A stretch of 64,000 bases of DNA, from the NCBI GenBank assembly GCA_002709075.1, contig PAPV01000014.1:479-64478 (forward strand), in the 5' to 3' direction. The position numbers were made by a program, and so were the translations under genes. This document shows, in pieces, positions 19,965 through 55,125 of this stretch; positions within the stretch are counted from its first letter, which is position 1; the number at the start of each line of letters is the position of its first letter. The stretch is from Rhodospirillaceae bacterium. Lineage in GTDB: Bacteria > Pseudomonadota > Alphaproteobacteria > MPNO01 > UBA2964. A model generated the notes under the pieces. It was not told the origin of the DNA. It worked only from the letters and a program-made list of their open reading frames with translations, and searched no databases.

Positions 19965-21089
19965 GTGGACACTACTGCAGACGAATTTAGATCAAAAGTA
20001 GATGATAGGCCTTTTTTGTCAGACCCCTATCTCGATTGGGCGGAGGCACAAAATATCGAAATTGTCGAGGATTTTGGTATTCATTTGCCTGATGTACCTG
20101 TGAAACCTTGGGATCACTTCGAATGTAATGGTGGATTAGCCCATTTAAAGGGTCGTGGAGATTGGTTGGCTGTTTTCGTTCTGGAATTACCGCCTGGCGG
20201 CAACACACGACCTCGCAATCATATGTTTGAAGAAGTATATTACGTGTTGTCCGGTACCGGTTCGACTCAGGTAGAGTTGTCGGATGGTTCAAAGCACAGC
20301 TTTGAATGGAATCAGGGTAGTATGTTTGCTGTTCCGTTAAATGCTAAGTACCAACATTTTAATGGTTCAGGCCAAGAACCAGCTCGTTTATCATCGACTA
20401 ATAATTCGCCTATGATCATGAATGTGTATCATGACCATGAATTTGTGTTTTCCAATGATTATAAATTTAAGAGTAGAGAGGGAACTGATAATTATTTCTC
20501 TGGAGAAGGTACTTTTTTACCAAAGCGACCTGGACGTCACATGTGGGAAACGAATTTTGTCCCTGATTTGAGAAGCTTTGAGCTTCAAAAATGGAATGCT
20601 CGAGGTGCTGGTGGTTCTAACATGATGTTTTGTTTGGCAGATGGTGCGATGCATGCGCACATATCTGAAATGCCGGTCGGCACTTACAAGAAGGGCCATC
20701 GTCACGGTGCTGACTTCCATGTAATGTGTGTAACAGGTCATGGTTATTCTCTTTTATGGTATCAGGGTGATGAGGAGCCAACAAAGGTTAATTGGGCACA
20801 TGGAACAGTTTTTGCGCCGCCAGATATGATGTTCCATCAGCATTTTAACGCTGCACCTAATCCCTCCAGATATTTAGCAATTGCATGCGGAGGCCTGCGG
20901 TATCCACTCATGGAAGAAAAACGTAGAATTTTTATGGGAATGGATGTGGATGTAAATAAAGGAGGAGCACAAATTGAATACGAGAACCAAAACCCACGGA
21001 TCCATCAAATCTTTCTCGAAGCCATGAAAAAAGCGGGGGCAAAGTCTAAGATGGGTGAATTTATCGACGAATCACAGTACAAAATTTAA
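19965..21089 (+). CDS. bicupin protein, C-terminal cupin with metal-binding His residues
   Basis: GHRHGADFHVMCVTGHG and PPDMMFHQHFN cupin motifs; start moved to GTG 19965, 5 nt after GGAGGA (19954-19959). Confidence 0.6.
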   Translation: MDTTADEFRSKVDDRPFLSDPYLDWAEAQNIEIVEDFGIHLPDVPVKPWDHFECNGGLAHLKGRGDWLAVFVLELPPGGNTRPRNHMFEEVYYVLSGTGSTQVELSDGSKHSFEWNQGSMFAVPLNAKYQHFNGSGQEPARLSSTNNSPMIMNVYHDHEFVFSNDYKFKSREGTDNYFSGEGTFLPKRPGRHMWETNFVPDLRSFELQKWNARGAGGSNMMFCLADGAMHAHISEMPVGTYKKGHRHGADFHVMCVTGHGYSLLWYQGDEEPTKVNWAHGTVFAPPDMMFHQHFNAAPNPSRYLAIACGGLRYPLMEEKRRIFMGMDVDVNKGGAQIEYENQNPRIHQIFLEAMKKAGAKSKMGEFIDESQYKI

Positions 21090-26464: not shown

Positions 26465-26541
26465 TATTATTTATATAGGTTCATTATTTATCGAAAATAC
26501 TACACCATTTTTTATAGAATACACCCTTCCCACAGATCGTC

Positions 26542-26554
26542 TGTACACATACAA
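26542..26554 (+). promoter_or_regulatory. related box TGTACACATACAA upstream of UbiD-1
   Basis: 12/13 match to the kor/44739 box, same orientation relative to the gene, 39 nt upstream of ATG 26594. Confidence 0.4.
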
Positions 26555-33016: not shown

Positions 33017-34504
33017 ATGAGTGCATTAGAAAAGAAAAATCCTGCTAAAAAAGGCACAAATACTAGGTGCTCATTGGAATATTTTGACTTACGGGATTGG
33101 CTCTCAATTGTTGAAAATTCTGGTGATCTAAGGATTGTCAAAGGTGCAAATTGGAAGACTGATATTGGTCAAGTGGTAGAGGTAATGTGCCATGACGAGG
33201 GGACTCCTTCGGTAATTTTTGACGACGTTGAAGGGTGCTTTGAGGGCTTTCGTTTGTTGGTGAATTGGTTTACCGGAACACGAAAAAATTTAACGCTTGG
33301 ATTTCCAGACCATTTAAATAAACTAGAACTAAGCCAAGCTTATAATCAGCACACCCGTACGATAGAACCTATTCCGCATAGAATTGTAGATTCTGGTCCC
33401 ATTTTGGAAAATGTTCTTGAGGAAGAGGCTATTGATGTAACAAAGTTTCCAGCCCCCATTTGGAATCCTGATGATGGTGGGCGATACATAGGCACGGGTT
33501 GTTACAACATTACGCAGGATCCAGATACTGGGTGGATCAATTGCGGCACTTATCGTGTAATGATTCATGATTCCAAGCGTGTAGGCCTTTATATCTCTCC
33601 AGGAAAACATGGGCGTATCCATCGTGATAAATATCTGGCAAAGGGTAAATCAATGCCAGTGTGCATTGTGGTAGGTTCTGATCCTCTATCATTCCTTACT
33701 TCATCCACTGAAGTACCAGAGGGTACAAGTGAACTAGATATGATGGGAGCTTATAGAGGTAAAGCTATAGAGTGTGTGATAGGTAAACACACTGGGCTTC
33801 CGTTTCCTGCAAGCTCCGAAGTTGTAATTGAAGGGTTTATTCATCCTGGAAATACGAAGCGCGAGGGTCCGTTTGGTGAATGGTTAGGATATCAAGGAGC
33901 TGCAATGCCGTCGGAACCGTGGGTGGATATATCAGCAGTTTATCATCGCGACAACCCAATTATCCTTGGTGCAGCTCATATCAGAATGCCGTACGAGTAT
34001 GCAAGATATCGCGCTATAAGTCGTTCAGCTGTCTTGAAGGAGAACATTGCAAAAGCAGGTGTGCCTGATGTCACCGAAGTTTGGGCTCATGAAGTGGGTG
34101 GCTCGCGGCTATTTTTAGCGGTAGCGATTAATCAGCGCTATCCCGGTCATTCAACTCAGGCAGGTCAAATTGCGGCGACTTGCCACGCAGGGGCGTATTT
34201 GGGTCGGTTAGTTGTGGTTGTTGATGAAGATGTTGATGTCTCTAATTTAGAGGAGGTTATTTGGGCGGTTTGCACTCGATGTGATCCCGCAACAAATATT
34301 GATGTAATAAAAAATATGTGGTCCTCTGCGCTTGACCCGATAATTTCACCAGACGATCGTGCTTCTGGGAAATTGTATAACAGTAGGGCGGTAATTGATG
34401 CTTGTCGGCCATTTCATTGGAAAAAAGATTTTCAAAAAGTTAATGCACTTGGTTCTAAGGCGAGGAAAGAAGCTTGGTCGCGTTGGGGGCATCTAAGAGA
34501 TTAA
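33017..34504 (+). CDS. UbiD-family decarboxylase (UbiD-3), tandem paralog of UbiD-2
   Basis: 495 aa; colinear with UbiD-2 over the full length with many identical blocks (GGRYIGTG, GTYRVMI, ISPGKHGRIHRDKY, EGPFGEW, VVVVDEDVDVSNLEE, IDACRPFHWK). Confidence 0.85.
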   Translation: MSALEKKNPAKKGTNTRCSLEYFDLRDWLSIVENSGDLRIVKGANWKTDIGQVVEVMCHDEGTPSVIFDDVEGCFEGFRLLVNWFTGTRKNLTLGFPDHLNKLELSQAYNQHTRTIEPIPHRIVDSGPILENVLEEEAIDVTKFPAPIWNPDDGGRYIGTGCYNITQDPDTGWINCGTYRVMIHDSKRVGLYISPGKHGRIHRDKYLAKGKSMPVCIVVGSDPLSFLTSSTEVPEGTSELDMMGAYRGKAIECVIGKHTGLPFPASSEVVIEGFIHPGNTKREGPFGEWLGYQGAAMPSEPWVDISAVYHRDNPIILGAAHIRMPYEYARYRAISRSAVLKENIAKAGVPDVTEVWAHEVGGSRLFLAVAINQRYPGHSTQAGQIAATCHAGAYLGRLVVVVDEDVDVSNLEEVIWAVCTRCDPATNIDVIKNMWSSALDPIISPDDRASGKLYNSRAVIDACRPFHWKKDFQKVNALGSKARKEAWSRWGHLRD

Positions 34505-40848: not shown

Positions 40849-41337
40849 TTGGCACTTAAGAAAAAAGTAAATGTTATTAACTGCGAAGATAAGAAGTTGA
40901 GTGACTCCTCCAAAAATTCTAATAAATACATTTTGGAAAAACAAGTGGGACATTTACTTCGTCGTGCCCATCAGCGTCATACTTGGATTTTCCAGAAAAG
41001 AATTGGCGACAGGAGTTTGACACCGGTTCAATTCGCTGCTTTGGTGAAACTCAATGTTTTGGGGGAAGTGTCTCAAAATCAACTTGGCCGAAACACCGCT
41101 ATGGATGCATCGACAATGCAAGGTGTTATTAAACGTCTTGCATCACGTGGGTTAATAGAGAGAAAAGCTGACCCTAACGATCGTCGTAGATTACTTTTGA
41201 GTCTGAGTGAGGAGGGTAAAAAAGTTCTGGAATTGGCAATTCCGTCAGGCCGAATCATAACAAATTCTACTCTCTCGCCTCTTTCTGACGATGAGCAAAA
41301 AACACTTATAGCATTGTTAAAAAAAATCTCATATTAA
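40849..41337 (+). CDS. MarR family transcriptional regulator
   Basis: 162 aa; LTPVQFAALVKL, winged-helix RLASRGLIERKADPNDRR; TTG start (another in-frame TTG lies ~45 nt downstream). Confidence 0.8.
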   Translation: MALKKKVNVINCEDKKLSDSSKNSNKYILEKQVGHLLRRAHQRHTWIFQKRIGDRSLTPVQFAALVKLNVLGEVSQNQLGRNTAMDASTMQGVIKRLASRGLIERKADPNDRRRLLLSLSEEGKKVLELAIPSGRIITNSTLSPLSDDEQKTLIALLKKISY

Positions 41338-41592
41338 GTTTGTCTTCAGCGTTAATTTTAAAACCAAATATAGTTGTTTAGATATTCCATGTTTCAATCA
41401 TGTTATTTCTTATGGTTAAAAATATAAGCAAAATTAAAAATGACAATCGATGTTTTTGTTGTGAGGTAGTTTGAAAAAAAATTTAAACGAGCAACTATTA
41501 GGGAAGTAAATTTTTTCAATCATAAATATACTTAAACCGAAGAACTTAGTCGCATATGAAGGTTATTTGACCAATGTTTAAACTTTTTTCTA

Positions 41593-42618
41593 TTAGATAA
41601 TTGTCCAAGTTCTACCATTGTGCATAAGGTTAGTTACGGTCATTGGGGAAGTTTGTTTTGTTGCTTCCTGAATTTGCAGATGAACAGCTTCTTCATAGGT
41701 TTTGTTCGGATTAGCATATATTACACCCATTGCCACAGGCCATTTCGGCGCTTGCATTTTCGCTAGCATAGAAGCGAGGACGCGATTTGTTCTGTCGTGA
41801 ACTAAAATATCTGTTTTTTTAACACCCTTGGGTCCAATAGTTACTATTTCAAGCTCGAGTTTTTCTTTATTAAGACGAAGTCCCTTTTCAGCGTCCTTTC
41901 CAAAAATAAGTGGTTTTCCGTGTTCGCAGAAAATTTGACCATCACTGCTGTTATTTTTTTCTGTGAAGGAAGAAAACACACCATCATTATAAACAATACA
42001 ATTTTGTAAAATTTCAACTAATGCAGCACCTTTGTGAGCTTTCGCCTCTGCTAATATATTTGGCAGGAGTTTTTGATCGGTATCGACACCACGAGCAACA
42101 AAAGTTGCATTGCAACCCATAGCAAATTGACAAGCAGATACTGGTGAGTCAATAGATCCTGTCGGTGTAGATGGCGATTTGGTGCCAATATCAGAGGTTG
42201 GGGAATATTGTCCTTTAGTTAGGCCGTATATCGAATTGTTGAATAAAAGAATTTGTAGGTCAATATTTCGTCGCAGTGCATGCAAAGTATGGTTGCCGCC
42301 AATAGATAGCATATCTCCGTCTCCACCGATTACCCAGACGTCGAGGTCAGGATTGCTTAATTTCACACCAGTCGCTACCGCAGGTGCTCTTCCGTGGATT
42401 GTATGAAAACCATATGTCTCCATGTAATAAGGAAATCGCGCAGCGCAGCCGATGCCAGAGATAAAGACGGTTTTAGCAGGGTCAGCTCCGTTATCTGAAA
42501 GTGCGCGCTGAACTCCCTTTAGAATGGCATAATCGCCGCAACCTGGACACCAACGAACTTCTTGATCGGAAGCAAAATCATTCGGTTTGAGTTCTTTATG
42601 TGGACTTTCATTTTTCAC
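41593..42618 (-). CDS. korB: 2-oxoglutarate/2-oxoacid:ferredoxin oxidoreductase beta subunit (TPP-binding)
   Basis: WCPGCGDYAIL, GGDGD, IYGLTKGQ motifs; ATGA-type 4-nt overlap with korA. Confidence 0.85.
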   Translation of the reverse strand: MKNESPHKELKPNDFASDQEVRWCPGCGDYAILKGVQRALSDNGADPAKTVFISGIGCAARFPYYMETYGFHTIHGRAPAVATGVKLSNPDLDVWVIGGDGDMLSIGGNHTLHALRRNIDLQILLFNNSIYGLTKGQYSPTSDIGTKSPSTPTGSIDSPVSACQFAMGCNATFVARGVDTDQKLLPNILAEAKAHKGAALVEILQNCIVYNDGVFSSFTEKNNSSDGQIFCEHGKPLIFGKDAEKGLRLNKEKLELEIVTIGPKGVKKTDILVHDRTNRVLASMLAKMQAPKWPVAMGVIYANPNKTYEEAVHLQIQEATKQTSPMTVTNLMHNGRTWTII

Positions 42619-44489
42619 TTTAAATTCTCCAATCGAGTCCTAATTTGGGCTTCAAGATCTGCTACTTTAAAAGGTTTACCATTAATTTGTGTAAATGACT
42701 CTGCTGCGATTAAATATTCAGCTTTTAAAAGTTTTACAAGTTGTCCATTATTTATTTCAGGGACTAGAATTTTTTCAAAATTTGAAAGCAGTTTGAATAT
42801 ATTTTTCGGCATGGGCCATATATGCCGGATATGCAATTGTGATACTTGTAACCCATCAGAACGACAACGGCGAACAGCTTGTTCGATCGCACCAAACGTT
42901 GACCCCCAACCCACAACAAGTAATTTTCCGGACTCCGCACCATTTGCGATTTCTTGATCGGGTATGTCATTGCTTATATTATTGATTTTTGCCGCACGAA
43001 CTTTTGTCATCTTGTGATGATTATCAGCATCGTAAGAAATATTTCCAGAATCATAATCTTTTTCAATTCCGCCTATGCGGTGCTCTAAACCCGGGGTTCC
43101 GGGCACCACCCACGGACGAGCAAGTGTTTGTTCATTACGATTATAAGGCTGAAAATCTGTTTTTTCGGTGTGAAAACTTACCGGAAACTCTTTAATATTC
43201 TCAACGTCTGGAATGCGCCACGGCTCGGCCGCATTCGCAAGATATCCTTCGTTTAAAAACATTACAGGTGTCATGTATTTAGTGGCTAATCGAACCGCCT
43301 CGACTGCGCACTCAAAGCAGTCTGATGGTGTAGATGCAGAAATAACCGGCATTGGTGTATCGCCGTTTCGTCCCCAAACGGCTTGTAGTAGATCAGACTG
43401 CTCCGTCTTGGTAGGCATACCTGTGGATGGCCCTGCTCTTTGAAAATTTATTATAACAAGTGGGAGTTCTGTCGAAACCGCTAGTCCCATAGCTTCCGTC
43501 TTAAGTGCAATACCGGGCCCGGAACTTGATGTAATACCCAAGCATCCGGAGAAGGATGCTCCAATAGCTGCGCAAATCGCAGATATTTCATCCTCTGCCT
43601 GAAATGTAATTACTCCATGTTCGCGCAGATTGCTGAGTGAATGTAAAAGGGGAGAGGCAGGGGTTATAGGGTATGAACCAAAAAATAATTTTAAACCAGT
43701 TTTTTCGGCGCCGGCAAGCAGGCCCCATGTTGTTGTTTCTATTCCTGTTACGGCGCGATAAATTCCAGGTTTTTTTTCTGCTTTTGGAACAATAAAGGTG
43801 GCTAAATCAGCTGAAATTTCAGCCGTTTCTCCATAAGAATGGCCTGCATTTAGAGCTGCTACATTTGCTTTAGCAATATTAGGACGGTCAGAAAAACGCG
43901 ACTCAAGCCATTCTAAAGTAGACTGCCTCTCTCGACCATACATCCAACACATTAAACCTAGTGTCCAGATATTTTTACAGCGAAGAGCATCGCGTTTGCT
44001 AAGGCCGAGGCCTTCCACGGAAGCAAGAGTAAGTTTTGATATATCAATTTTTATAGAACGAAAAAACTCAAGTGTATTATCTTCCAAAGGGTCTGTATCG
44101 TAACCGGCTTTTTTAATATTTCGCGGATTAAATGTACCCGTATTAACAATTACTAATCCGCTTGATGCTAAATCTGAGAGATGCACTTTTAATGCTGCTG
44201 GGTTCATAGCAACCAAAACATCAGGCCTGTCACCTGGGGTTTTAATACTATGCGAGGCAAAGTTTATTTGAAATGCTGAAACACCAAAAGTTGTTCCGAC
44301 CGGGGCACGTATTTCTGCTGGAAAATCCGGAAAAGTTGAAAGGTCATTACCCATCAGTGCTGTTGATTGCGTGAATTGAGTTCCCGTTAACTGCATACCA
44401 TCGCCGGAATCACCCGCAAAACGTATCACTACAGAGTCTAGAATCTCTCTTCCTTTGAAATTCGTGTCCAATTTTGTTGCCATTTTCAT
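42615..44489 (-). CDS. korA: 2-oxoglutarate/2-oxoacid:ferredoxin oxidoreductase alpha subunit (fused gamma-alpha)
   Basis: 624 aa; FAGDSGDGMQLTG, FPAEIRAP N-terminal gamma-type domain then pyruvate:flavodoxin OR core domains. Confidence 0.85.
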   Translation of the reverse strand: MKMATKLDTNFKGREILDSVVIRFAGDSGDGMQLTGTQFTQSTALMGNDLSTFPDFPAEIRAPVGTTFGVSAFQINFASHSIKTPGDRPDVLVAMNPAALKVHLSDLASSGLVIVNTGTFNPRNIKKAGYDTDPLEDNTLEFFRSIKIDISKLTLASVEGLGLSKRDALRCKNIWTLGLMCWMYGRERQSTLEWLESRFSDRPNIAKANVAALNAGHSYGETAEISADLATFIVPKAEKKPGIYRAVTGIETTTWGLLAGAEKTGLKLFFGSYPITPASPLLHSLSNLREHGVITFQAEDEISAICAAIGASFSGCLGITSSSGPGIALKTEAMGLAVSTELPLVIINFQRAGPSTGMPTKTEQSDLLQAVWGRNGDTPMPVISASTPSDCFECAVEAVRLATKYMTPVMFLNEGYLANAAEPWRIPDVENIKEFPVSFHTEKTDFQPYNRNEQTLARPWVVPGTPGLEHRIGGIEKDYDSGNISYDADNHHKMTKVRAAKINNISNDIPDQEIANGAESGKLLVVGWGSTFGAIEQAVRRCRSDGLQVSQLHIRHIWPMPKNIFKLLSNFEKILVPEINNGQLVKLLKAEYLIAAESFTQINGKPFKVADLEAQIRTRLENLK

Positions 44490-44535
44490 CCCTTATCTCC
44501 GATCTTTTTTGTGAATGGTCTCACTGATCAGTAGA

Positions 44536-44558
44536 TTGTTTGTGTACATACAATTATT
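44536..44558 (-). promoter_or_regulatory. 23-bp promoter/operator block upstream of korA (minus-strand reading AATAATTGTATGTACACAAACAA)
   Basis: 22/23 identical to 44670..44692 read on the plus strand; box ends 46 nt upstream of korA ATG; AATAAT is a plausible -10. Confidence 0.6.
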
Positions 44559-44646
44559 CAAATTTCTGATTTTCAATCCAACCTGTCAAGTCTGCTTGGA
44601 ATCAATATTTAAAAAAATGATACATATGTGTTTTTACCTCCTTTGC

Positions 44647-44675
44647 TTGACAGTATTCGCTGCTGATTGAATATT
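44647..44675 (+). promoter_or_regulatory. sigma70-like promoter for the 44739..48320 operon
   Basis: TTGACA (44647-44652), 17-nt spacer, AATATT (44670-44675). Confidence 0.5.
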
Positions 44676-44713
44676 TGTATGTACACAAACAAAAATTATA
44701 TGTACACAAACAA
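44670..44713 (+). promoter_or_regulatory. two direct TGTACACAAACAA boxes (44680-44692, 44701-44713), 21-bp phasing, putative operator
   Basis: Exact 13-mer repeated twice right after the putative -10 and 25 nt upstream of ATG 44739. Confidence 0.6.
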
Positions 44714-44738
44714 ATTGTACCGGGAATTTGGAGGCACC

Positions 44739-46226
44739 ATGGCGCAAATGAGAGAAAATAAAGATGATGGTTTGATACGATGCGATGCTTGTCCAGTGTT
44801 GTGCAGAATTCGTCCTGAAAAGACCGGTGCCTGCAATCGATACGGAAATTTTGAGGGCAAACTTACAAGAGTGGATCCAGTAGTAGTTGTACAAAAAGCG
44901 CTGGATGAAGATTGTGAACTTGTTCCATTTGCGAGAGCATCGGAGGAGTGGGACGGATCTCTGATAAGTCAAGCACCAACATTTTTGACTGGCATTGGAT
45001 CTACTACAACTTATCCTGACTATAAGCCTGCTCCTTTTATTGTGTCGAGCGATCAAGATGGTGTTGATATGGTTACTGTCGTCAGTGAGGGAGTTTTTTC
45101 ATATTGTGGTGTTAAGGTTAAAATCGATACTGATGCTTACATCGGTCCAGAGCCTGCTCCAATTAGAGTAAAAGGCGAGCAGGTTGGTCATGTAACCACC
45201 GCTGAATATGGCAGTCAAATGTTGGCAATTGGCGGTGTACGGCACTTGACCGGAGGAAGTAAAAAAGAAGGTATGGTGACCTGTAACACTATGATGCGAC
45301 TTTGCAATAAAGAACCAGTTGAAATGACTATTGATGGTGGTGCGAATATAATAGTTCAGGGAGGAGAGCCTCCAATTATTAATGGGTTTAAAGAAGAACG
45401 TATGCGGGTAGGGTGTGGCTCAGCAACAGTTGGAATATTTGCACCTCAATGGAAAGACCATGTGGATGAGGTAATAGTCGTAGATGATCATATTACGGCA
45501 GTTTTATCCGAGCATCAGGCGGGACAATTTCTTGATATGCCTCTAGCTGGAATCAGAGTAAGAGGACGTCGTTCTACGCTTGGTCGTTATTTTCAAGTTG
45601 CAGATCATGGGGCAGGTTGGGGAGGAACCGATGTTGAAGATCCATTAGATATAATAGAGAAGATTGATGAAGATATTGCTTGGCCAGGCCTACGATTGTT
45701 GATGGTATCCACAACTGGTCAGGATTCTGCTTGGTATGTTTTAGATGATAATCTCGCACCTCAACCGACTAAAATGCCCCAGGAGGTAAAACTAGTTGTT
45801 GATCGTATTGGTGAAAATTGCGAGCCAGCGTTGTGTACTGTGATGTTCATGGCAGGCGCAGGTGGCTCTTTAAGGGCTGGTGTAACTATTAATCCTGTGC
45901 ACTTAACCCGAAGTGTTCGTGCTTCAGAGACACAAGTAACATGCGGCGGAGCACCTGTATTTGTGTGGCCGGGTGGTGGTATTACTCTTTTGGTGGATGT
46001 GAACCAAATGCCAGATAATTCCTTCGGGTGGGTTCCCACGCCTGCATTAGTTGCTCCCATAGAGTTCACCGTGCGTCGTGATCTTTATGAACGAATTGGA
46101 GGTTATTCTGATAAGGTAAAAAATATTCATGATGTTATTTCTGAACTAGGAAATATTCGATCTGTTCCATGGCGGGAAAATCACCCATGGCCGCCAGAGG
46201 GCATGGCTCGCAAAGATAAGGTGTAA
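44739..46226 (+). CDS. Cys-rich protein of the family commonly auto-annotated as 6-hydroxynicotinate reductase
   Basis: 495 aa from ATG 44739 (GGAGG 4 nt upstream); N-terminal CDACPVLCRIRPEKTGAC cluster motif; family assignment is from memory and unverified. Confidence 0.55.
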   Translation: MAQMRENKDDGLIRCDACPVLCRIRPEKTGACNRYGNFEGKLTRVDPVVVVQKALDEDCELVPFARASEEWDGSLISQAPTFLTGIGSTTTYPDYKPAPFIVSSDQDGVDMVTVVSEGVFSYCGVKVKIDTDAYIGPEPAPIRVKGEQVGHVTTAEYGSQMLAIGGVRHLTGGSKKEGMVTCNTMMRLCNKEPVEMTIDGGANIIVQGGEPPIINGFKEERMRVGCGSATVGIFAPQWKDHVDEVIVVDDHITAVLSEHQAGQFLDMPLAGIRVRGRRSTLGRYFQVADHGAGWGGTDVEDPLDIIEKIDEDIAWPGLRLLMVSTTGQDSAWYVLDDNLAPQPTKMPQEVKLVVDRIGENCEPALCTVMFMAGAGGSLRAGVTINPVHLTRSVRASETQVTCGGAPVFVWPGGGITLLVDVNQMPDNSFGWVPTPALVAPIEFTVRRDLYERIGGYSDKVKNIHDVISELGNIRSVPWRENHPWPPEGMARKDKV

Positions 46227-46231
46227 GAAAA

Positions 46232-47101
46232 ATGTTTGATGGTGCTCAAGTATGCATGCTTCCTGATGGCAAGCGGCTTCATTTGTGCGAAGGACCCATT
46301 GATATCATTCTTGAGGCTTTTGGTCCTCCGAGCGAAATAACTGCAGCCTATAAACGTGCAGAGGTTTGTTTCCTTGATATTCTCTCTACACTAGTTGGTG
46401 AGTTATCTGATTTACGAAAACAGATAGGTGACCCAGAATGCTATCCCGTTGGTCCCGTTGCTAGAAGAATGTTTAACGCTTGTTGGCCTCATCGCAAATG
46501 TTTTGTAACTCCTATGGCAGCTGTAGCAGGTTCTGTGGCAGATGAAGTTTTGACATCATTATCTGCTTCAAAATGTCTTTCAAAAGCATATATCAATAAT
46601 GGGGGTGATATTGCATTTTACTTGGCGAAAGGGGAAAGTTTAACCGCCGGGATTGTAGGTGATTATCATCTTCCCCAGATTAACGCTACGTGTGCTTTTA
46701 CTTCGGATTCGCCTGTCCGTGGGATCGCAACTAGTGGTTGGAAGGGGCGTTCTTTTTCGTTGGGAATCGCGGATACCGTTTCTGTGCTTGCGGAAAATGC
46801 TGCGAAAGCAGATGTGGCAGCTACATTGATAGCTAATGCTGTTGATGTTGATCATCCATCGGTATCTCGTGTTTGTGCTCGTGAATTGGACCCCGATAGT
46901 GATTTAGAGAATCGTGCAGTGACGACAGGGGTAGGAAAACTTGAACCAGAGGTGGTAGAGGAGGCACTTAATCAGGGAGTAAAAACAGCAAAAATTATGC
47001 TTGCATCTGGACTAATTCACGCAGCAGTGTTGATATTAAACAATAAATATAAAATGGTCGGTGATATGCCGGCTGGTTTGTTGGCGGGAGAAAAACAATG
47101 A
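46232..47101 (+). CDS. UPF0280 family protein (ApbE superfamily fold)
   Basis: 289 aa; NNGGDI, GIATSG, ADVAATLIANAV resemble ApbE-fold signatures; 5 nt after upstream stop. Confidence 0.55.
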   Translation: MFDGAQVCMLPDGKRLHLCEGPIDIILEAFGPPSEITAAYKRAEVCFLDILSTLVGELSDLRKQIGDPECYPVGPVARRMFNACWPHRKCFVTPMAAVAGSVADEVLTSLSASKCLSKAYINNGGDIAFYLAKGESLTAGIVGDYHLPQINATCAFTSDSPVRGIATSGWKGRSFSLGIADTVSVLAENAAKADVAATLIANAVDVDHPSVSRVCARELDPDSDLENRAVTTGVGKLEPEVVEEALNQGVKTAKIMLASGLIHAAVLILNNKYKMVGDMPAGLLAGEKQ

Positions 47102-47733
47102 AAAATGTACGGAATATCAAAGATATACAAGTGCCACCTGCTGGTGATTTTGGAGAATTAGTAAAAATTCGCAAATATGTTTTGCATACAGAAGAAGTAC
47201 TACATGAGTTTGGACCGCCCGCTAACCCTCCGCAGTTGCGAGGCTTCATTGCGGCGGTAGCGGCTAATCCTTATGCTGGCGAGTATATTGAAGATCTTAT
47301 ACCTCTGATGGAAGCACTTAAACCATTGGGTTTGCTGATGGCAAAGCGGCTAGCGGACAGTCTTGGTGGAGCGGACAAGATTGTTGCCTATGGAAAATCG
47401 GCGCTGGTAGGTGAAGATGGAGAGCTTGAACATGCAGCACTGTGGCATGAACCAGGAGGCTACGGCATGCGTGAACTGATTAAACCATCAAAAGCCATTG
47501 TGCCATCTACAAAAAAGGTTGCGGGGCCGGGTCGGCCTTTAGATGTCCCTCTTGCTCATGTGAACGCAGCATATGTGCGTAGCCATTTTGATTGTGTAGA
47601 ATGTTGTATCGCTGATGCACCACGTCGTGACGAGGTTGTTTGGGTCCAGGCGATGGCAACTGGTCCTCGAATTTATGATCGGTCTGGTGGTCTATCGGCG
47701 GATGAAATAAAAGGAGAGGATGGATTACGCTAA
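47098..47733 (+). CDS. 'amino acid synthesis' family protein (PF06684/DUF1185), paralog 1
   Basis: 211 aa; YGKSALVGEDGELEHAA, DVPLAHVNAAYVRSHFD, DAPRRDE; ATGA overlap with upstream gene. Confidence 0.7.
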   Translation: MKNVRNIKDIQVPPAGDFGELVKIRKYVLHTEEVLHEFGPPANPPQLRGFIAAVAANPYAGEYIEDLIPLMEALKPLGLLMAKRLADSLGGADKIVAYGKSALVGEDGELEHAALWHEPGGYGMRELIKPSKAIVPSTKKVAGPGRPLDVPLAHVNAAYVRSHFDCVECCIADAPRRDEVVWVQAMATGPRIYDRSGGLSADEIKGEDGLR

Positions 47734-47735
47734 TA

Positions 47736-48320
47736 ATGAGGGTATCTCCTCGTAAAACTCATGTTTCCTGTGAGACCACTTATGTTGATGGAGGGAAAAA
47801 AGCAGAAATTCCCTCACGAAAGGCCGTTGCAATTGCTGTAATTGAAAACCCTTTTGCTAATAAATTTCATAAAAGACTTACTCAACTCGAAAATATTGGT
47901 GAATGGCTTGGGAAATACTTAGGGGAGTTGGCGGTAAATGCAATGAATGCGGCACCAAGTGAAATAGAGAGTTTTGGCAAGGCTGCTATTGTTGGAGAGA
48001 ATGGTGAGTTGGAGCATGCTGCTGCCATTTTGCACCCAAAATTGGGGCAACCTCTCCGTGAGGTGATGGGTGGTGGTCGAGCCCTTGTGCCTTCTGCAAA
48101 AAAATTGGGTGGACCTGGAATTCGTATCGATGTACCACTTGGTCATAAGAACGCAGCCTACGTTCGCAGCCATTTTGACTCAATTGAAGCTGGTTTGCCA
48201 GATGCGCCGCGCGCAAATGAAATTCTCGTGTGCGTAGCAGTGGCGGACTTCGGCAGACCTCATGCCCGGGTTGGCGGATTGAAAAAAGAGGATGTGGTTG
48301 GAAAAGACGGCTTAAAATGA
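47736..48320 (+). CDS. 'amino acid synthesis' family protein (PF06684/DUF1185), paralog 2
   Basis: 194 aa; FGKAAIVGENGELEHAAAILHPKLG, DVPLGHKNAAYVRSHFD, DAPRANE; 2 nt after upstream stop. Confidence 0.75.
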   Translation: MRVSPRKTHVSCETTYVDGGKKAEIPSRKAVAIAVIENPFANKFHKRLTQLENIGEWLGKYLGELAVNAMNAAPSEIESFGKAAIVGENGELEHAAAILHPKLGQPLREVMGGGRALVPSAKKLGGPGIRIDVPLGHKNAAYVRSHFDSIEAGLPDAPRANEILVCVAVADFGRPHARVGGLKKEDVVGKDGLK

Positions 48321-48954
48321 GTTTTTTGTAAATTAACCTGTTCATGTTTTTCTGCTAAAGTAAAAAAATTCAACGTTGAATACAAAAAATCTCTCACGTG
48401 AGTAAAATGCTATTATTGGATTGATAAATTCTTTCCGTGAATGATATGTCATGAGGCCGTTTATCCGACACAACTTAATTCAGTGTGTTATTTAAAAAAG
48501 GTCAATCTATGGTTCAAATGCGCATCGTTTCTTCGTCTGATTTCATTTTTGTATTCCAAGAAAAATTTCGATATTACGTTGATATTCAACGATGAGAGTA
48601 TTGATGTGTTTGCTTCTCTACCCAAAGAGAGTTATTAACAGAACTCCAACAGCGTCATATTGGTTTTAGTGTTTGCCGTGAGATAACTAAGACTCTGGTG
48701 TGTGACCGTCACCATATAAGCAGTGGGTGTGGTGCCTGGAACAGAAACCTCAAAAACATCATATTTGGTTCTTTGATTGAGATGGGCATTTCAAAAAAGT
48801 TTAGTTTAAACATCATTGAAGCCACGGATTTGATACCATCGGAGCTACTTTTTTACAAAAACAATTTCTGCATCATTTTATAACGTCAACTCAAATTATA
48901 AGTTCGACAACTTATTCCACAATATTTAAATGCAAAATACAATATTTTAGATGT

Positions 48955-51291
48955 TTAGTTTTTTGCAGCTTGGATGGCTTCCCAGACGCGAGCTGGAGTA
49001 GCGGGTGCGTCAAGCTTTGTAACACCAACAGGGGCCAGTGCGTGCAGTATAGCGCACATTGATGCTGCCATAGATCCACCATTTCCCGCTTCCCCACAAC
49101 CTTTTACTCCTAAAGGGTTGGTGGTAGAGGGTACGTTGCGAGTTGAAAACGCTATATTGCAAAGATCATCGGCTCGAGGCATGCAGTAGTCCATGTAAGA
49201 CCCAGTAACAAGTTGTCCATTTTCATCATAGACAGTATTCTCAAGCAAAACTTGCCCAATACCTTGCATTATTCCTCCTTGTACTTGGCCCTCGACAACC
49301 AGAGGGTTAATTACTAACCCGAAGTCATCTACAACAGTATACCGGACAATTTCTGTAACTCCGGTTTCGGGATCAATTTCTACCTCACATATGTGACAAC
49401 CATTTGGGAATGATGAAGGACTGGTATCGTGAACTGCTTTGTCGTCTAGTGTGTCTGGAACATCTTTTGGCAAATTAATTTCAGATTGTAATCTTTTTGA
49501 TAGCTCTATTATACCGATTGATCGATCTGTTCCGGCTACAATAAAGTCACCTGCGGCAAATTCAATATCCTCTGCTGCAGCCTCAAGAAAATGTGCGGCA
49601 GCAATTTTTCCTTTTTCTGCAATCTTTGTGGCGCAGTCATTAATGGCATTTCCTGCCCCCAAAAGTGTTTTGGAGCCCCCAGATCCGCTGGCGCCCTTAC
49701 TCATAAGTTCTGAGTCATTTTGGATAACACGTATTTTTTCATATGGAACGCCCAGTTTGTCAGACAAAATCTGCGCAAAGGGGGTGCGATGACTTGTTCC
49801 CATGTCTTTTGCTCCAGTAATCAGTGCTACCGTGCCATCATCATGAAATCGAACATCACAAAGCTCTCCAGCGGCGCCCGTGTTTTCAAGATAAGGGGTT
49901 AGAGCAATACCGCATAATTTTCCACGTTGAGCAGCTTTTGCTCTTCGCTCTTCAAAACCAGCCCAATCCGCTTGTTTTAAACATTCATCCATCAACGCTT
50001 CAAATTCACCAGAATCATACTCTTGCCCGTTAGGAGTTTTCCAAGGGAATGACCCAGCTGGGATTAGATTTTTTCTTCGGATTTCAACCCTATCAAAGCC
50101 CATTTCGCTGGCTGCTTTATCAATTAGTTGCTCCAAAATATATTTGGATTCTGGACGCCCTGCACCGCGGTATGGTCCCGTAGGAACCGTGTTTGAAAAC
50201 ACGGCTTTTGTTCCGTAGGCAAAAGCGGGCGTTTTATACACACTGACCAAATTTCGGGAGATTACACCAGTGACTGGACCAGGACCCATAGCGGTTGAAT
50301 AAGCCCCCAAATTCCCAACACCCCCGCATCTGAGCGCCAAAAAATTTCCATCTTTATCCAAAGCCAATTCTGCACTTATAAGACTGTCACGACCCTGTTG
50401 GTCTGAGAGAAAACTCTCGGTCCTACTGGCTGTCCATTTTACTGTTCGGTTCAGCTTCCGGGAAGCATACATAACAGCGATAGGCTCTGCTAGACACGCA
50501 CCTTTCATGCCAAAAGAACCGCCCACATCATTGGAAAGAATACGAATTTTTTCATCTTTCATTTTGAAAATTGCTTTAGCTAACTGCGATCTCATTCCAA
50601 CGACACCTTGCGTTGGCAGAGTTACAGTGAATTTGTCCAAGTGCGAGTCGTATTCGGCTATAACAGCTCGTGGTTCCATTGCATTTACCACCATACGGGT
50701 AGATAAAACACGAATACTGCTTACATGGTCGGCTTCCTCAAATGCCTGGTCGCAGGCTTTCTGATCTCCAGTAAAATAGTCAAGGCAAATGTTATTTTCT
50801 GCTTCGTCCCATAGTTGAACAGCACCATCTTGAAGCGCATCCCACGCCTCAACAGTTACTTTTTCTGGCAGAATATCTACTGCTACTAATTCAGCTGCTT
50901 CTTCTGCAAGCGCTGCAGTTTCTGCAATAACAACTGCTATTATTTCACCAACGTGTCGAACCCGACCTTCAGCCATCCCACAACGAGGAGGTACAAAGTA
51001 GGGGGATCCGTCCCGATTTTTGATTGGCATGTTTGATGGAATGTCTCCCACGCTATCGGCTCGCAAATCCTCCGCAGTATAAATTGCCAACACACCAGGC
51101 ATTTCCAAAGCTGTACATATCTTTATTGATTTAATTATCCCGTGGGCAACCTGACTGCGAACAAAACGCGCATAGAGTTGCCCGTCCGCGGAATAATCAT
51201 CCGTGTATTCCCCGCCACCAGTCAGAAGTCGAGGATCCTCTGATCGATAAACAGGTTGCCCAATACCAAAATTTAGCGGTATCCTACTCAT
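48955..51291 (-). CDS. xanthine dehydrogenase/aldehyde oxidase family molybdopterin-binding large subunit (CoxL-like, non-CO-dehydrogenase type)
   Basis: 778 aa; GQPVYRSEDPRLLTG N-terminus, GSFGMKG, GPYRGAGRPE active-site loop; 8-nt overlap with hyuB. Confidence 0.85.
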   Translation of the reverse strand: MSRIPLNFGIGQPVYRSEDPRLLTGGGEYTDDYSADGQLYARFVRSQVAHGIIKSIKICTALEMPGVLAIYTAEDLRADSVGDIPSNMPIKNRDGSPYFVPPRCGMAEGRVRHVGEIIAVVIAETAALAEEAAELVAVDILPEKVTVEAWDALQDGAVQLWDEAENNICLDYFTGDQKACDQAFEEADHVSSIRVLSTRMVVNAMEPRAVIAEYDSHLDKFTVTLPTQGVVGMRSQLAKAIFKMKDEKIRILSNDVGGSFGMKGACLAEPIAVMYASRKLNRTVKWTASRTESFLSDQQGRDSLISAELALDKDGNFLALRCGGVGNLGAYSTAMGPGPVTGVISRNLVSVYKTPAFAYGTKAVFSNTVPTGPYRGAGRPESKYILEQLIDKAASEMGFDRVEIRRKNLIPAGSFPWKTPNGQEYDSGEFEALMDECLKQADWAGFEERRAKAAQRGKLCGIALTPYLENTGAAGELCDVRFHDDGTVALITGAKDMGTSHRTPFAQILSDKLGVPYEKIRVIQNDSELMSKGASGSGGSKTLLGAGNAINDCATKIAEKGKIAAAHFLEAAAEDIEFAAGDFIVAGTDRSIGIIELSKRLQSEINLPKDVPDTLDDKAVHDTSPSSFPNGCHICEVEIDPETGVTEIVRYTVVDDFGLVINPLVVEGQVQGGIMQGIGQVLLENTVYDENGQLVTGSYMDYCMPRADDLCNIAFSTRNVPSTTNPLGVKGCGEAGNGGSMAASMCAILHALAPVGVTKLDAPATPARVWEAIQAAKN

Positions 51292-53041
51292 CCCGGGGTT
51301 TCTCCAAATTTTCTATCAAGATTTTGCGTTTTTTATTAGTTTTAACTATATTTGCTTTGCCGCTTTTATCTATACAGACGCCAAAAAGTTCTTCTGCTTG
51401 CAGTTCCGTGTAGTAACCCCGTTTCACATCACTTTGTACCAGACTTATATCTCGTTCGCATGGATTACCATAGCCACCACCACCAGGAGTTGAAACTCTA
51501 ACAGTATCATTCTGATTTACCTCGATATCTTGGTCTTTTGATAGATGTGGCGGTATGTAATCTACACCATTTTGGCTGATCACAACCCTGTTAACGCCGC
51601 CATTCGCTCCACCAAGTACCCCTAACGGTCCTGTTCGCCCATGATCCATAACCATCGAAGCTCTTGCCTCACCTCTCTGGAGTCTAATTTTGTAGTTTAC
51701 TCCAAATCCTCCTCGATATTTTCCGGCTCCTCCGGACCCTTCATGAAGTGAAAATTCTTCAAAAATAACTGGGTAATATTGTTCCATAACCTCTATGGGA
51801 GTTGTTTTTGATATTCCAATTGTTGAGCAACCATTCGAGATACCATCCCCAAAATTACTTCCACCATAACCACCACCAGATATGACATACATTACGTAGG
51901 GTCGATCTTTTTCTGGATCAACACCACCAAGACAGAAATTCCCACTTGTACCTGCAGGCGCGGCAAAAAGTTTGTTGGGTATAGCTTCCACTAATGCTAC
52001 GAATACGGCCTCTGCGATGCGTTGACTAACTTCTGCAGCACAACCAGAAACTGGACGTGGATATTCTGCATATAGAAAAGTTCCCTTTGGATCATGAATA
52101 TGAAGTGGGTCAAATGTGCCTGCATTTATTGGTACATCAGGAAAAATGTGTTTCATAGCCAAATATATTGAAGATCTCGTGGTAGCAATCACAGAATTCA
52201 TTGGTCCAAGGCAAGGTGGACTGGAGTCCGACATATCAAAATATAATTCAGTTCCCTCGCAACGAATCTTCATTTTAATTTCCAGAGGTTTGTCCACTAC
52301 ACCATCGGAGTCAACAAATGCACTTCCATTGTATTCACCATCAGGGATATCATTAATGCATGCTCTCATTTGCTGTGCTGCCCGTTCGCGCAGTTCCTCA
52401 ATTGCTTGTTTAACTGTTTGTACGCCGTACCGTTCCAGCAATACCTCGAAGCGTTTTTCTCCAACAGTCAGAGCTGCAGCCTGTGCCTTTATATCTCCTA
52501 TACGTTGATCAGCGATCCTTATGTTTGAAAGCACTATTGAGAGTATTTCTTTATCTATAACGCCCTCTTTATATAGTTTAACTGGCGGCAACCTCAATCC
52601 TTCCTGCTCGACCTCAGTCGCACTTGCAGAAAAACCACCAGGTACAGATCCACCTGTGTCTGGCCAATGACCAGTGTTGGCCAACCATGCGAAAAGTTCT
52701 CCCTGATAAAAAAATGGTTTTACGAAGCGTACATCCATTAGATGTGTTCCGCCCAGATATGGGTCATTTACAATATAAACATCACCAGCTTTAGCATTTT
52801 TCGCTCTTTCGATTACACATTTAGTGCCAAACTGCATTGTTCCTACAAACACCGGCAAACCTAATTCCCCTTGGGAAATTAAATCTCCGTTTTCTGGATG
52901 ATAAATGCCATCTGACCTATCCAAAGCCTCTGAAATTACTGGACTAAATGCAGACCTTACAAACGCGAGATCCATCTCATTGCAAACCTGCTGAAGACCC
53001 GATTGAATAACGGCTAATGTAACGGGGTCTAGCGAACTCAT
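51284..53041 (-). CDS. hyuB: hydantoinase B/oxoprolinase family protein
   Basis: 585 aa; DPVTLAVIQSGL, NDPYLGGTHLMD, GGGYG motifs. Confidence 0.8.
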   Translation of the reverse strand: MSSLDPVTLAVIQSGLQQVCNEMDLAFVRSAFSPVISEALDRSDGIYHPENGDLISQGELGLPVFVGTMQFGTKCVIERAKNAKAGDVYIVNDPYLGGTHLMDVRFVKPFFYQGELFAWLANTGHWPDTGGSVPGGFSASATEVEQEGLRLPPVKLYKEGVIDKEILSIVLSNIRIADQRIGDIKAQAAALTVGEKRFEVLLERYGVQTVKQAIEELRERAAQQMRACINDIPDGEYNGSAFVDSDGVVDKPLEIKMKIRCEGTELYFDMSDSSPPCLGPMNSVIATTRSSIYLAMKHIFPDVPINAGTFDPLHIHDPKGTFLYAEYPRPVSGCAAEVSQRIAEAVFVALVEAIPNKLFAAPAGTSGNFCLGGVDPEKDRPYVMYVISGGGYGGSNFGDGISNGCSTIGISKTTPIEVMEQYYPVIFEEFSLHEGSGGAGKYRGGFGVNYKIRLQRGEARASMVMDHGRTGPLGVLGGANGGVNRVVISQNGVDYIPPHLSKDQDIEVNQNDTVRVSTPGGGGYGNPCERDISLVQSDVKRGYYTELQAEELFGVCIDKSGKANIVKTNKKRKILIENLEKPRDE

Positions 53042-55083
53042 TTGGTAATCTCCGTATCAATATTCATTATAATATTGCCAAAAATATCAGTGTACATATT
53101 ATCTTTGGGTTCCATAATTACGGTTGTATCGCTTTGTTCAAGGATAGCAGGGCCTTGCAAAGTTGTTTCTAGTGGCATTGCCTCTCTATTGTAAATAGGT
53201 GTTTCTGTGCGGCCACCTTCAAACCAAACCAGGCGGGCCCCGGTTTGCGCTTTTTCAATTCTGTTTGTTCGCATTTTAATATCCATGAGATTAGAAAGTT
53301 CGACCTGTTTGCGCTTTCCAATTACCGCAGTGTGCAAATTTACAACGACCGGTCGGATCTCATCGAGTTCAACGGCAAATCTGTTCCAATATGCTGATGC
53401 AAAAGCATCATGGAGTTTCCGCTTCGTAATGTTTTTATTTACGGAAACGGTAAGAATATGTGTTTGTCCTTGAAATTGCATATCGATATCGTGAAAAATA
53501 ATGATATCTTCCACCTCTATACCTTCTGCATTAATCGTCTCTTGGCCACGCGTTTCTTGTTCTGTGAAAATCGCTGAAATTTCTTCCATGTTTGCTTCGA
53601 CCAAAGATTTATTAATCGTATTAACGTAGTCATGTCGAACATCGGCCACTACACAACCCACTGCATTTGTAATGCCTGGTCTTGCCGGAACTAGAACTTT
53701 TGGAATACCCAGTTCACGAGCGAGTGCGGCTGCGTGCAGAGGACCAGCTCCACCAAAGGGAAATAAAGCAAAGTCTCTTGGATCATGTCCTCTAGCAAGG
53801 GAGACAATTCTGAGAGCACCGGCCATTTTTGTATTGGCAATTTGTATTATCGCAGCAGCCGCTTCCTCAGGAGAATTTAAACCCAGAGGTTCACTGATTT
53901 TTTTTGTAAATATATCAATTATTTTATCAAGTCCAATATCAGAATTTGCCATAATTTCTGGATTTAGCCGTCCCAGTAGCATATTCGCATCTGTTATCGT
54001 CGGCTGCACACCACCGCGGCCATAACAAATAGGTCCTGGCACTGCACCGGCACTCTCTGGGCCCACTTCCAACAGGCCAGCAGGGGTTATAGCCGCGATT
54101 GACCCGCCACCAGCACCAATTGTTCGCACATCGACCATAGGAACGTGAATGGGCATCGCATACTCGATTTCTAATTCTGAGGAAACTTGGGGTATGCCGT
54201 TTTTGATAAGCGCCACATCACAACTTGTTCCACCCATATCACAGGTAATAACATTATCATATCCAGCGCTTTTTGCTGTGTAGGCGGCGGCCATCACGCC
54301 TGAGGCTGGTCCAGACATAACGGTGTTAACAGCGGTTTCGGAAATTAATTTGGATGATACCGTACCACCATTGCCCTGCATTACTAGCAAATCATGGACA
54401 TAGCCTCGGTCTTTTAGTTCATTCCTAAGCTTCTTTATATAATTGTCCAAAACCGGTTGGATCGCTGCATTTATCATCGCCGTAGTTCCACGTTCATATT
54501 CGCGAAATTCAGACATTACAGCGCTTCCACGAGTAATAAAGTCGTTCGGCCAAATCTCTCTCACAACCTGTTCTGCATGTTTTTCATTAGTATCATTGAC
54601 ATATGAATGAAGAAAGTGAATCACGATGGAGTCAACTCCCATATCGAGCAATCTTTGTGCTGCTTTTCGGACATCATTCTCATCCAAGGCTGTTATGATT
54701 TGCCCGTTTGCGCCAATTCGTTCTGACGCCTCCAAACGCCTTTCTCGCGGTATCAAGCATTCAAAACTGCCTGTGAGTCCGTATGGGTTCGGTCTTGTTC
54801 GACGACCAAGTTCAAGCGAGTCCCGAAAACCTAGGGTTGTTATGAGTCCACATTTTGCGATTTTTCGTTCTAAAAGGGCATTAGTAGTAACCGTTGTTCC
54901 ATGCACTATGGTGTGAATAGAAGCTGGTTGAACACCTCCTTCAGTTATTGCTGACAGAACTCCAAATGCCTGATTTTCCGGAGTTGAAGGCACTTTAGCA
55001 ATTTTTACTGTGCCCGTCTCGTCATCTAGAATTATTAAATCGGTAAAAGTACCACCTACATCCACTCCTACAATTCGGCTCAT
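53038..55083 (-). CDS. hyuA: hydantoinase A/oxoprolinase family protein (ATP-binding, ASKHA fold)
   Basis: 681 aa; GVDVGGTFTD, DMGGTSCD, GAGGGSIA motifs; 4-nt overlap with hyuB. Confidence 0.8.
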   Translation of the reverse strand: MSRIVGVDVGGTFTDLIILDDETGTVKIAKVPSTPENQAFGVLSAITEGGVQPASIHTIVHGTTVTTNALLERKIAKCGLITTLGFRDSLELGRRTRPNPYGLTGSFECLIPRERRLEASERIGANGQIITALDENDVRKAAQRLLDMGVDSIVIHFLHSYVNDTNEKHAEQVVREIWPNDFITRGSAVMSEFREYERGTTAMINAAIQPVLDNYIKKLRNELKDRGYVHDLLVMQGNGGTVSSKLISETAVNTVMSGPASGVMAAAYTAKSAGYDNVITCDMGGTSCDVALIKNGIPQVSSELEIEYAMPIHVPMVDVRTIGAGGGSIAAITPAGLLEVGPESAGAVPGPICYGRGGVQPTITDANMLLGRLNPEIMANSDIGLDKIIDIFTKKISEPLGLNSPEEAAAAIIQIANTKMAGALRIVSLARGHDPRDFALFPFGGAGPLHAAALARELGIPKVLVPARPGITNAVGCVVADVRHDYVNTINKSLVEANMEEISAIFTEQETRGQETINAEGIEVEDIIIFHDIDMQFQGQTHILTVSVNKNITKRKLHDAFASAYWNRFAVELDEIRPVVVNLHTAVIGKRKQVELSNLMDIKMRTNRIEKAQTGARLVWFEGGRTETPIYNREAMPLETTLQGPAILEQSDTTVIMEPKDNMYTDIFGNIIMNIDTEITK

Positions 55084-55106: not shown

Positions 55107-55125
55107 TCATTCGTGTACATATAAT
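55107..55125 (-). promoter_or_regulatory. related box upstream of hyuA (minus-strand reading ATTATATGTACACGAATGA)
   Basis: ATTATATGTACAC is 13/13 identical to 44695..44707; lies 23-41 nt upstream of hyuA ATG (55083). Confidence 0.45.

Follow-up and report, generated by a model that had tools for sequence, protein, structure and literature searches.

Classical operators of the MarR family, such as those of Escherichia coli MarR (marO), OhrR (ohrA) and HucR (hucO), are pseudo-palindromes of about 18 bp that bind one dimer and lie over the -10 box or the transcription start; in these systems divergent genes share a control region, and the sites are sometimes tandem, as are the two in marO. Within the family, BpsR of Bordetella bronchiseptica and B. 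pertussis, a NicR homologue (structures 6PCO and 6PCP), is the 6-hydroxynicotinate-responsive repressor of the nic genes, and its ligand is bound by Tyr15, His23 and Arg26 of one monomer together with His32 of the other (PMC6837509). Ligand binding moves the recognition helices by ~7 Å, preventing DNA binding (PMC6837509). NicR of Pseudomonas putida KT2440 is the MarR-type repressor of the nicC and nicX operons and is induced by 6-hydroxynicotinate (PMC6837509, PMC10269826). The exact DNA sequence recognised by BpsR has been called unclear, which was the reason why no BpsR protein-DNA complex was obtained, and BpsR also affects biofilm genes in Bordetella (PMC6837509). In our study, we analysed a 64-kb stretch of a Rhodospirillaceae bacterium (contig PAPV01000014.1), hereafter the window, to which site counts and open reading frame (ORF) scans refer unless other loci are named. 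The analysis centred on repeated blocks in the spacer between kor, which encodes a 2-oxoacid:ferredoxin oxidoreductase, and the divergent hnr operon, which begins with a homologue of 6-hydroxynicotinate reductase (Hnr). Judged from sequence and comparison, it is likely that three elements in this spacer (O1, O2 and O3) are operators of a BpsR-like, 6-hydroxynicotinate-responsive repressor that would control the kor oxidoreductase and the hnr operon together.

A preceding sequence-only reading of this spacer had described mirrored 23-bp blocks matching at 22 of 23 positions, and this proved correct, with the minus strand of 44536-44558 reading AATAATTGTATGTACACAAACAA and the plus strand of 44670-44692 reading AATATTTGTATGTACACAAACAA. 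A repeat search extended the inverted repeat to 26 nucleotides (nt; 44536-44561 against 44667-44692, 25/26, 96% complementary) with arms 105 nt apart, and also returned a direct repeat of 21 nt (44670-44690 against 44691-44711, 86%). The 13-mer that had been described on the hnr side was exactly repeated as stated, although the repeated unit was longer, a 15-mer (TATGTACACAAACAA) with three exact copies at 44536-50 on the minus strand and at 44678-92 and 44699-713 on the plus strand. The 23-bp block itself was present but was not the operator unit. By comparing the variants found in the intergenic islands of relatives (TTGTATGTACACAAACAA, TTGTATGTATACAAACAA, TTGTTTGTATACTAACAA and TTGTTAGTATACAAACAA), the core unit was defined as an 18-bp palindrome, TTGTWWGTAYACWWACAA, with the perfect form TTGTTTGTATACAAACAA, and the block consisted of this palindrome plus five upstream bases. 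At 18 bp, the palindrome falls within the ~16-20 bp expected of a MarR-family operator that is bound by one winged-helix dimer. When TTGTWWGTAYACWWACAA was searched in degenerate form with up to 3 mismatches, the window yielded 8 strand-matches against a shuffle mean of 1.68, and none of 100 shuffles yielded 8 or more. A position weight matrix (PWM) built from orthologous sites, with 41 seed sites in kor/hnr intergenic regions, returned only 5 sites in the 64 kb (O1 to O5, Table 1), all at 17.6 bits or above, while shuffles gave 0.07 sites at 16 bits or above. The repeats are far beyond chance.

Orthologous loci were gathered by exact-protein look-ups and by a scan of one genome per species. 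The close-relative set for footprinting consisted of the window plus L005, L009, L010, L016-L033 and L050 (22 related loci), and the promoter alignment consisted of 20 close relatives. In the relatives with an Hnr identity of 75-87%, kor and hnr were again divergent, and the spacers between them had diverged almost completely except for two islands, each containing the 18-bp element. Most loci carried two sites, at approximately -55 and -225 from the hnr ATG, with one in L021 and L028 and none in L022 and L027. A counterpart of O1 was present on the kor side in all 20 aligned relatives, and the sequence at the position of O2 was identical or nearly so. Distant alphaproteobacterial loci with a GC content of 60-72% still matched the PWM, and the A/T-rich 18-mer was conspicuous there. 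Those high-GC loci mostly held one or two sites between korA and an operon of Mo-hydroxylase subunits followed by hnr (also described as an ndh-hnr operon), and further sites occurred upstream of hydA and marR and in the gap between a second Mo-hydroxylase gene and aas2. Across 80 species-level loci, at least one site at 16 bits or above was present in 51. The palindrome is conserved at equivalent promoters in dozens of alphaproteobacterial species, and on these comparative grounds the blocks are very probably transcription-factor operators.

Variation within the motif was assessed in 107 sites from 81 sources. Positions T4, G7, C12 and A15 were invariant, and positions T8 and A11 varied in 1 of the 107 sites. 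The dinucleotide at motif positions 9-10 was AC, AT or GT in all sites, and GC did not occur, so that one or both of the central pairs were A·T throughout, a possible sign that the DNA must be deformable at the dyad. In L022 and L027, whose Hnr is 77-82% identical to that of the window, there was no operator upstream of hnr at all, indicating that the motif was lost or the regulation changed in some lineages. Spacings between the O1 and O2 positions ranged from 139 to 204 bp across loci with no consistent helical phase, and DNA looping between the two sites is therefore not proposed.

The palindrome also kept a fixed position relative to a TTGACA -35 box. It had been claimed that each block starts with a -10-like hexamer facing its own gene, and on the hnr side this held: AATATT is preceded by a perfect TTGACA 17 nt upstream, which is conserved in relatives, and in 18 of the 20 the arrangement cTTGACAg-N17-GATAT directly abuts the operator. 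O2 starts on the final base of the predicted -10 box and covers the expected start, and the same geometry was seen in relatives. On the kor side, the hexamer AATAAT is probably not a -10 box and is more likely a by-product of the block duplication discussed below; a conserved kor promoter could be placed further upstream. TTGACA was kept on this side in all relatives, most of which showed cTTGACAa-N16/17-GATACT, then approximately 13 nt, then the operator. In the window, L005 and L016, TTGACA was followed by 17 nt, GAAATT, 7 nt and the operator, and these three loci had the string ATCAGAAATT of the kor promoter in common. GAAATT agrees with the -10 consensus at 3 of 6 positions and was not called by the consensus scan, being recognised from sequence and alignment. 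The predicted starts lie at about 44682 on the plus strand and about 44554 on the minus strand, and O1 would fall within the first part of the predicted kor transcript, at about +1 to +25. At O4 and O5, scans for terminators and promoters gave several weak promoter candidates, none of them decisive, and an equivalent of O4 was found ~42 nt upstream of hydA in L010, L018 and L021.

The protein that the earlier reading had put forward for binding assays, the MarR encoded in the left flank of the cluster, was supported as the candidate regulator, both by the motif before syntenic marR genes in relatives and by its homology to BpsR with the 6-hydroxynicotinate residues in place. The marR gene lies ~3 kb from the blocks, and no other window ORF that was scanned encodes a recognisable DNA-binding domain. 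At least 13 relatives have a site (variant TTATTCGTACACAAACAA) at a distance of 10-47 nt upstream of marR, and in L044 the site abuts the marR ORF, a typical sign of MarR autoregulation. In other distant loci, marR stands immediately upstream of the ndh-hnr operon with a site in between. Linkage was assessed in the 80 species-level loci with a flank of +/-10 kb and a site threshold of 16 bits or above; sites were present in 28 of the 30 loci with marR in the flank, against 23 of the 50 without it (Fisher test, 1e-5). Taken together, the conservation of the palindrome on both the kor and hnr sides, its fixed distance to the -35 box and the motif before marR favour the earlier proposal that a single DNA-binding protein, acting at or just downstream of the transcription start, governs both divergent units.

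The best solved-structure match of the window MarR was 2NNN (1.5e-35), and the BpsR structures 6PCP and 6PCO followed at 8e-27; compared pairwise with BpsR, the window MarR showed 41% identity over 138 residues (8e-37). The four BpsR residues Y15, H23, R26 and H32 align with Y27, H35, R38 and H44 of the window MarR, which are putative ligand contacts. All four were kept in close orthologues, and the fourth His was lost in some distant ones. Unlike the window MarR, which keeps these residues, NicR is without the conserved 6-hydroxynicotinate-binding residues of BpsR (PMC6837509), and 2NNN, annotated as a "probable transcriptional regulator" of the MarR family with no function in its entry, has two of the four missing, H35 being replaced by F and H44 by Y. 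From linkage and homology, the adjacent MarR is quite probably the factor that binds the palindromes, and we lean towards 6-hydroxynicotinate as its ligand.

Like BpsR, the window MarR is linked to nicotinate genes. The targets of the two differ, as BpsR acts on the aerobic maleamate pathway (nicC, nicX, nicD, nicF and nicE), whereas a reductive pathway is the predicted target in the window, comprising hnr, the 2-oxoacid:ferredoxin oxidoreductase and an enzyme of the hydantoinase type. The recognition helices differ as well, reading MDA(A/S)TMQGV in the window branch and IDQATVRGV in BpsR, and the outer half-sites TTGT...ACAA of the window motif are absent from the betaproteobacterial loci. 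In three betaproteobacterial BpsR loci of 20 kb each, the word GTGTACAC was found in nic intergenic regions by eye and by exact-word search, as the core of paired palindromes. It was located at 20292-20323 and 10700-10730 of L096, at 17102-17133 and 17294-17325 of L099, and at 17834-17865 and 17990-18021 of L101; the nicE/nicC spacers of L099 and L101 each hold it twice, and L099 (Cupriavidus) has an extra copy at 9812, ~190 nt upstream of its bpsR homologue. The local consensus around this word, AGTGTGTACACT, has TGTGTACA in common with the centre of the window motif, and the AGTGTGTACACT elements are a candidate recognition sequence for BpsR. We infer that a shared core with different flanks would match the differing recognition helices of the two branches. 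The regulatory logic resembles that of NicR, in which a MarR repressor encoded in a nicotinate cluster acts through operators at divergent catabolic promoters and is induced by the first intermediate of the pathway; for the window, this logic is a proposal. In contrast with the classical MarR systems, the operator sequence of the window is unrelated, and in this lineage marR is neither divergent from the operator nor preceded by it.

Several observations weigh against the reading of O1-O3 as BpsR-like operators. The transcription starts are predictions, and a search of RNA runs returned none with the window sequence. The predicted -10 box of kor is weak, and its operator lies downstream of the start and not over the promoter. 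O5 is a candidate assigned from the window sequence. When the alphaproteobacterial PWM was applied to the betaproteobacterial BpsR loci of Bordetella, Cupriavidus and Caballeronia, there was no match; with the BpsR sequence also called unclear, operator-level equivalence to BpsR is hypothetical. Upstream of marR, no site at 6 bits or above was found in the window, nor was one found in L005 or L016, so that the argument from autoregulation draws on other lineages; in the MarR family, autoregulation is frequent without being obligatory.

The absence of a site before marR in these loci also bears on a different explanation, that the palindromes serve another transcription factor encoded elsewhere, with the adjacent MarR acting on other targets or on no more than part of the cluster. 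The 23 site-bearing loci without marR within 10 kb point the same way, as the regulator there could be another protein encoded elsewhere, and L040 in particular carries three strong sites with no marR within that distance. We nevertheless consider a second factor unlikely. No other regulator gene was found among the window ORFs scanned or in the neighbourhood of L040, nearly all marR-bearing loci have sites, many of them directly before marR, and the MarR keeps the ligand residues of a known regulator of nicotinate genes. The 18-bp palindrome is moreover the usual site format of a MarR dimer. The motifs of CRP/FNR, Rex and GntR-type regulators and the CA motifs of Hfq/Crc had been early candidates from the sequence and were abandoned when the palindrome had been defined and linked to marR.

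A second explanation places the action at the RNA level, with O2 and O3 serving in the hnr 5' leader as hairpins or as sites for proteins such as Hfq, through the A-rich ACAAACAA tracts, and thereby controlling translation or stability. O3 and most of O2 are probably inside the transcribed leader, the sequence is A/C-rich, and palindromes could in principle fold. However, folding of the leader was no better than that of shuffles (z = +0.76), and an Rfam search of 43500-45500 gave one sub-threshold match to a small RNA, which scored 18 bits where the gathering threshold is 440. In the 107 sites, the half-sites varied independently, with complementarity at symmetric positions at or below the level of independence and no compensatory changes, as expected of a protein site and not of a hairpin. 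The motif also occurs in both orientations, the hnr-side copy overlaps the -10 box so that its left half would not be transcribed, and further copies occupy promoter positions upstream of marR and hydA. Control through the RNA is accordingly very improbable. Least probable of all is that the 26-nt inverted repeats are the ends of a miniature inverted-repeat transposable element or of an invertible promoter switch, which the 105-bp segment with both -35 boxes between them superficially resembles, since each arm is itself a palindrome that other promoters and other species carry as a conserved single site, the scanned window ORFs included no recombinase or transposase, no further copies occurred in the window, and contigs from four independent metagenomes together with L001-L003 showed one orientation without joints, although contigs are weak at revealing rare inversions.

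The operators of the putative MarR repressor appeared to have multiplied in this lineage. Close relatives have one strong hnr-side site and one weaker kor-side site (TTGTTCGTACACATATGA on the kor side of L005), and the flanks of the two are unrelated. In the window, by contrast, the kor-side site read toward kor equals the hnr-side site read toward hnr, and the likeness continues for 8 nt further (TTGAATAA against TTGAATAT). The kor block thus resembles the hnr block of its own spacer and not the orthologous kor blocks, which suggests an inverted duplication or a conversion within the spacer. On the hnr side, relatives have a single site, and O3 is hence particular to this lineage; the 21-bp phasing that had been noted does exist as a spacing, but it is confined to this lineage and is not a general feature of these promoters. 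Lying 21 bp apart, O2 and O3 would occupy the same helix face, and it is speculative that two dimers could interact there. The apparent outcome is three near-perfect operators in this lineage against one strong and one weaker site in relatives.

Identical contigs were found in TARA samples, and the sequence is present in several marine metagenomes. L001 and L002 differ from the window and L003 by A to G at 44691, on the right edge of O2, and by A to T at 44694, in the spacer between O2 and O3; elsewhere in the 249-bp intergenic region, the four TARA/Logan contigs do not differ. The two tandem units are identical at 19 of 21 positions in L001, and the greater likeness of the units in L001 and L002 suggests that the tandem event was recent. 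In run X4, the assembly breaks between the arms of the inverted repeat, with contigs ending at 44598 and starting at 44602, and three other runs span this gap.

In the proposed mechanism, MarR dimers would, without ligand, occupy O2 and O3, with O2 covering the predicted hnr start, and another dimer would occupy O1 just downstream of the kor -10 box. By obstructing RNA polymerase at both divergent promoters, the bound dimers would keep both units off, and the same block may apply through O4 to the hydantoinase/Mo-hydroxylase operon and through O5 to the UbiD-type decarboxylase gene. The 6-hydroxynicotinate formed on hydroxylation of nicotinate would occupy the dimer interface (Y27, H35, R38 and H44') and force the recognition helices away from each other, so that the repressor would leave the DNA, in line with the structural findings on BpsR. 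The 6-hydroxynicotinate reductase, the 2-oxoacid:ferredoxin oxidoreductase, which is a plausible source of reduced ferredoxin, and the downstream ring-opening enzymes would then be switched on jointly.

The arrangement is an ordinary one of repressor and operators; its points of modest interest are the candidate recognition sequence, the proposed co-regulation of oxidoreductase and reductase, and the apparently recent operator amplification. We hold with about as much doubt as confidence a broader interpretation, in which TTGTWWGTAYACWWACAA would be the recognition sequence of an alphaproteobacterial BpsR-like branch whose GTGTAC core is shared with the BpsR operators of Bordetella, Cupriavidus and Caballeronia. 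Under the same interpretation, the regulon would pair a dedicated low-potential electron supply with the reductase in aerobic marine bacteria, and the amplification of the operator to three sites would give tighter, possibly cooperative repression. If the reading of the blocks as operators of the BpsR-like repressor is correct, it would provide a concrete DNA target for a vitamin-B3-sensing MarR subfamily and delineate a nicotinate-catabolic regulon found widely among uncultured Alphaproteobacteria of marine and soil habitats, and the co-regulation of kor and hnr would suggest how an aerobe supplies reduced ferredoxin to the reductase. The motif could be used for annotating such clusters in metagenomes and as part of a 6-hydroxynicotinate biosensor.

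Table 1. Putative operators, predicted promoters and genes of the kor/hnr cluster in the window.
Feature	Coordinates	Strand	PWM score (bits)	Description
Putative operator O1, kor side	44536..44553		29.1	TTGTATGTACACAAACAA toward korA; 47 nt upstream of the korA start codon
Putative operator O2, hnr side	44675..44692		29.1	TTGTATGTACACAAACAA; from the last base of the predicted -10 box over the predicted start
Putative operator O3	44696..44713		25.9	TTATATGTACACAAACAA; tandem copy 21 bp downstream of O2
Putative operator O4	55107..55124		17.6	TCATTCGTGTACATATAA; weaker copy, 24 nt upstream of the hydantoinase-A start codon (55083)
Putative operator O5	26537..26554		19.8	TCGTCTGTACACATACAA; weaker copy, 40 nt upstream of the UbiD-family decarboxylase gene 26594-28159
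Two 21-bp tandem units	44669..44710	+		Each GAATATT(TG/AT)ATGTACACAAAC; an apparent duplication gave O3
Predicted sigma-70-type hnr promoter	44647..44675	+		-35 TTGACA 44647-44652, 17-nt spacer, -10 AATATT 44670-44675; 10/12 consensus
Predicted kor promoter	44561..44589	-		-35 TTGACA 44589-44584, 17-nt spacer, weak -10 GAAATT 44566-44561; O1 starts 7 nt past the -10 box
marR	40849..41337	+		BpsR-like MarR-family regulator, candidate repressor; Pfam MarR PF01047, 2.2e-13; syntenic in relatives
korB and korA	41593..44489	-		2-oxoacid:ferredoxin oxidoreductase, alpha subunit 42615-44489, beta subunit 41593-42618; TIGR03710 3.1e-190, TIGR02177; unit predicted under O1
hnr operon	44739..48320	+		6-hydroxynicotinate reductase homologue, AbpE_bact/PRK04334 protein, two AA_synth (PF06684); predicted under O2 and O3
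hydA-hydB-Mo-hydroxylase operon	48955-55083	-		Mo-hydroxylase large subunit, hydantoinase B and A; behind O4

The gene content of the cluster fits reductive nicotinate catabolism of the Azorhizobium/Eubacterium type. In Eubacterium barkeri and Azorhizobium caulinodans, this route leads from nicotinate through 6-hydroxynicotinate and tetrahydro-6-oxonicotinate to glutarate (PMC3511419). Database relatives of the first gene of the hnr operon (44739-46226, plus strand) carry the source name 6-hydroxynicotinate reductase (Hnr). Behind the Hnr gene (46232-48320) there always follow an AbpE_bact/PRK04334 protein and one or two PF06684 AA_synth proteins, both of them conserved families with no known function. 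Their co-regulation suggests that they take part in reducing 6-hydroxynicotinate or in processing tetrahydro-6-oxonicotinate. The left flank of the cluster contains a glutaryl-CoA-dehydrogenase-like gene, a succinate-glutarate CoA-transferase-like gene and marR, and the right flank, on the minus strand, also contains two isochorismatase-family amidases and a short-chain dehydrogenase.

The hydantoinase A and B genes (51284-55083), which encode ATP-dependent lactamase-type enzymes, stand behind an operator both in the window (O4) and in relatives. These enzymes may open the lactam ring of tetrahydro-6-oxonicotinate, replacing the enamidase of E. barkeri. In some distant loci, such as L040 (16352-17542), an Amidohydro_1 enzyme occurs in addition or instead. 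In relatives, marR and korB are separated by a Pyr_redox_2 gene (~440 aa), and aas2 and the Mo-hydroxylase gene by a Flavin_Reduct gene (~240 aa). Both are absent from the window, at 41338-41592 and 48321-48954, and tblastn detected no remnant there, which indicates that this lineage has a trimmed version of the cluster.

Further from the spacer, the window contains three UbiD-family decarboxylase paralogues (26594-28159, 31449-32942 and 33017-34504), with the MarR-type operator O5 at the first only. The paralogues may feed pyridine carboxylates into the nicotinate pathway. The catabolic island in which they lie also encodes an AMP-ligase, a glyoxalase, a SnoaL-like protein, an amidohydrolase and a Rieske ferredoxin.

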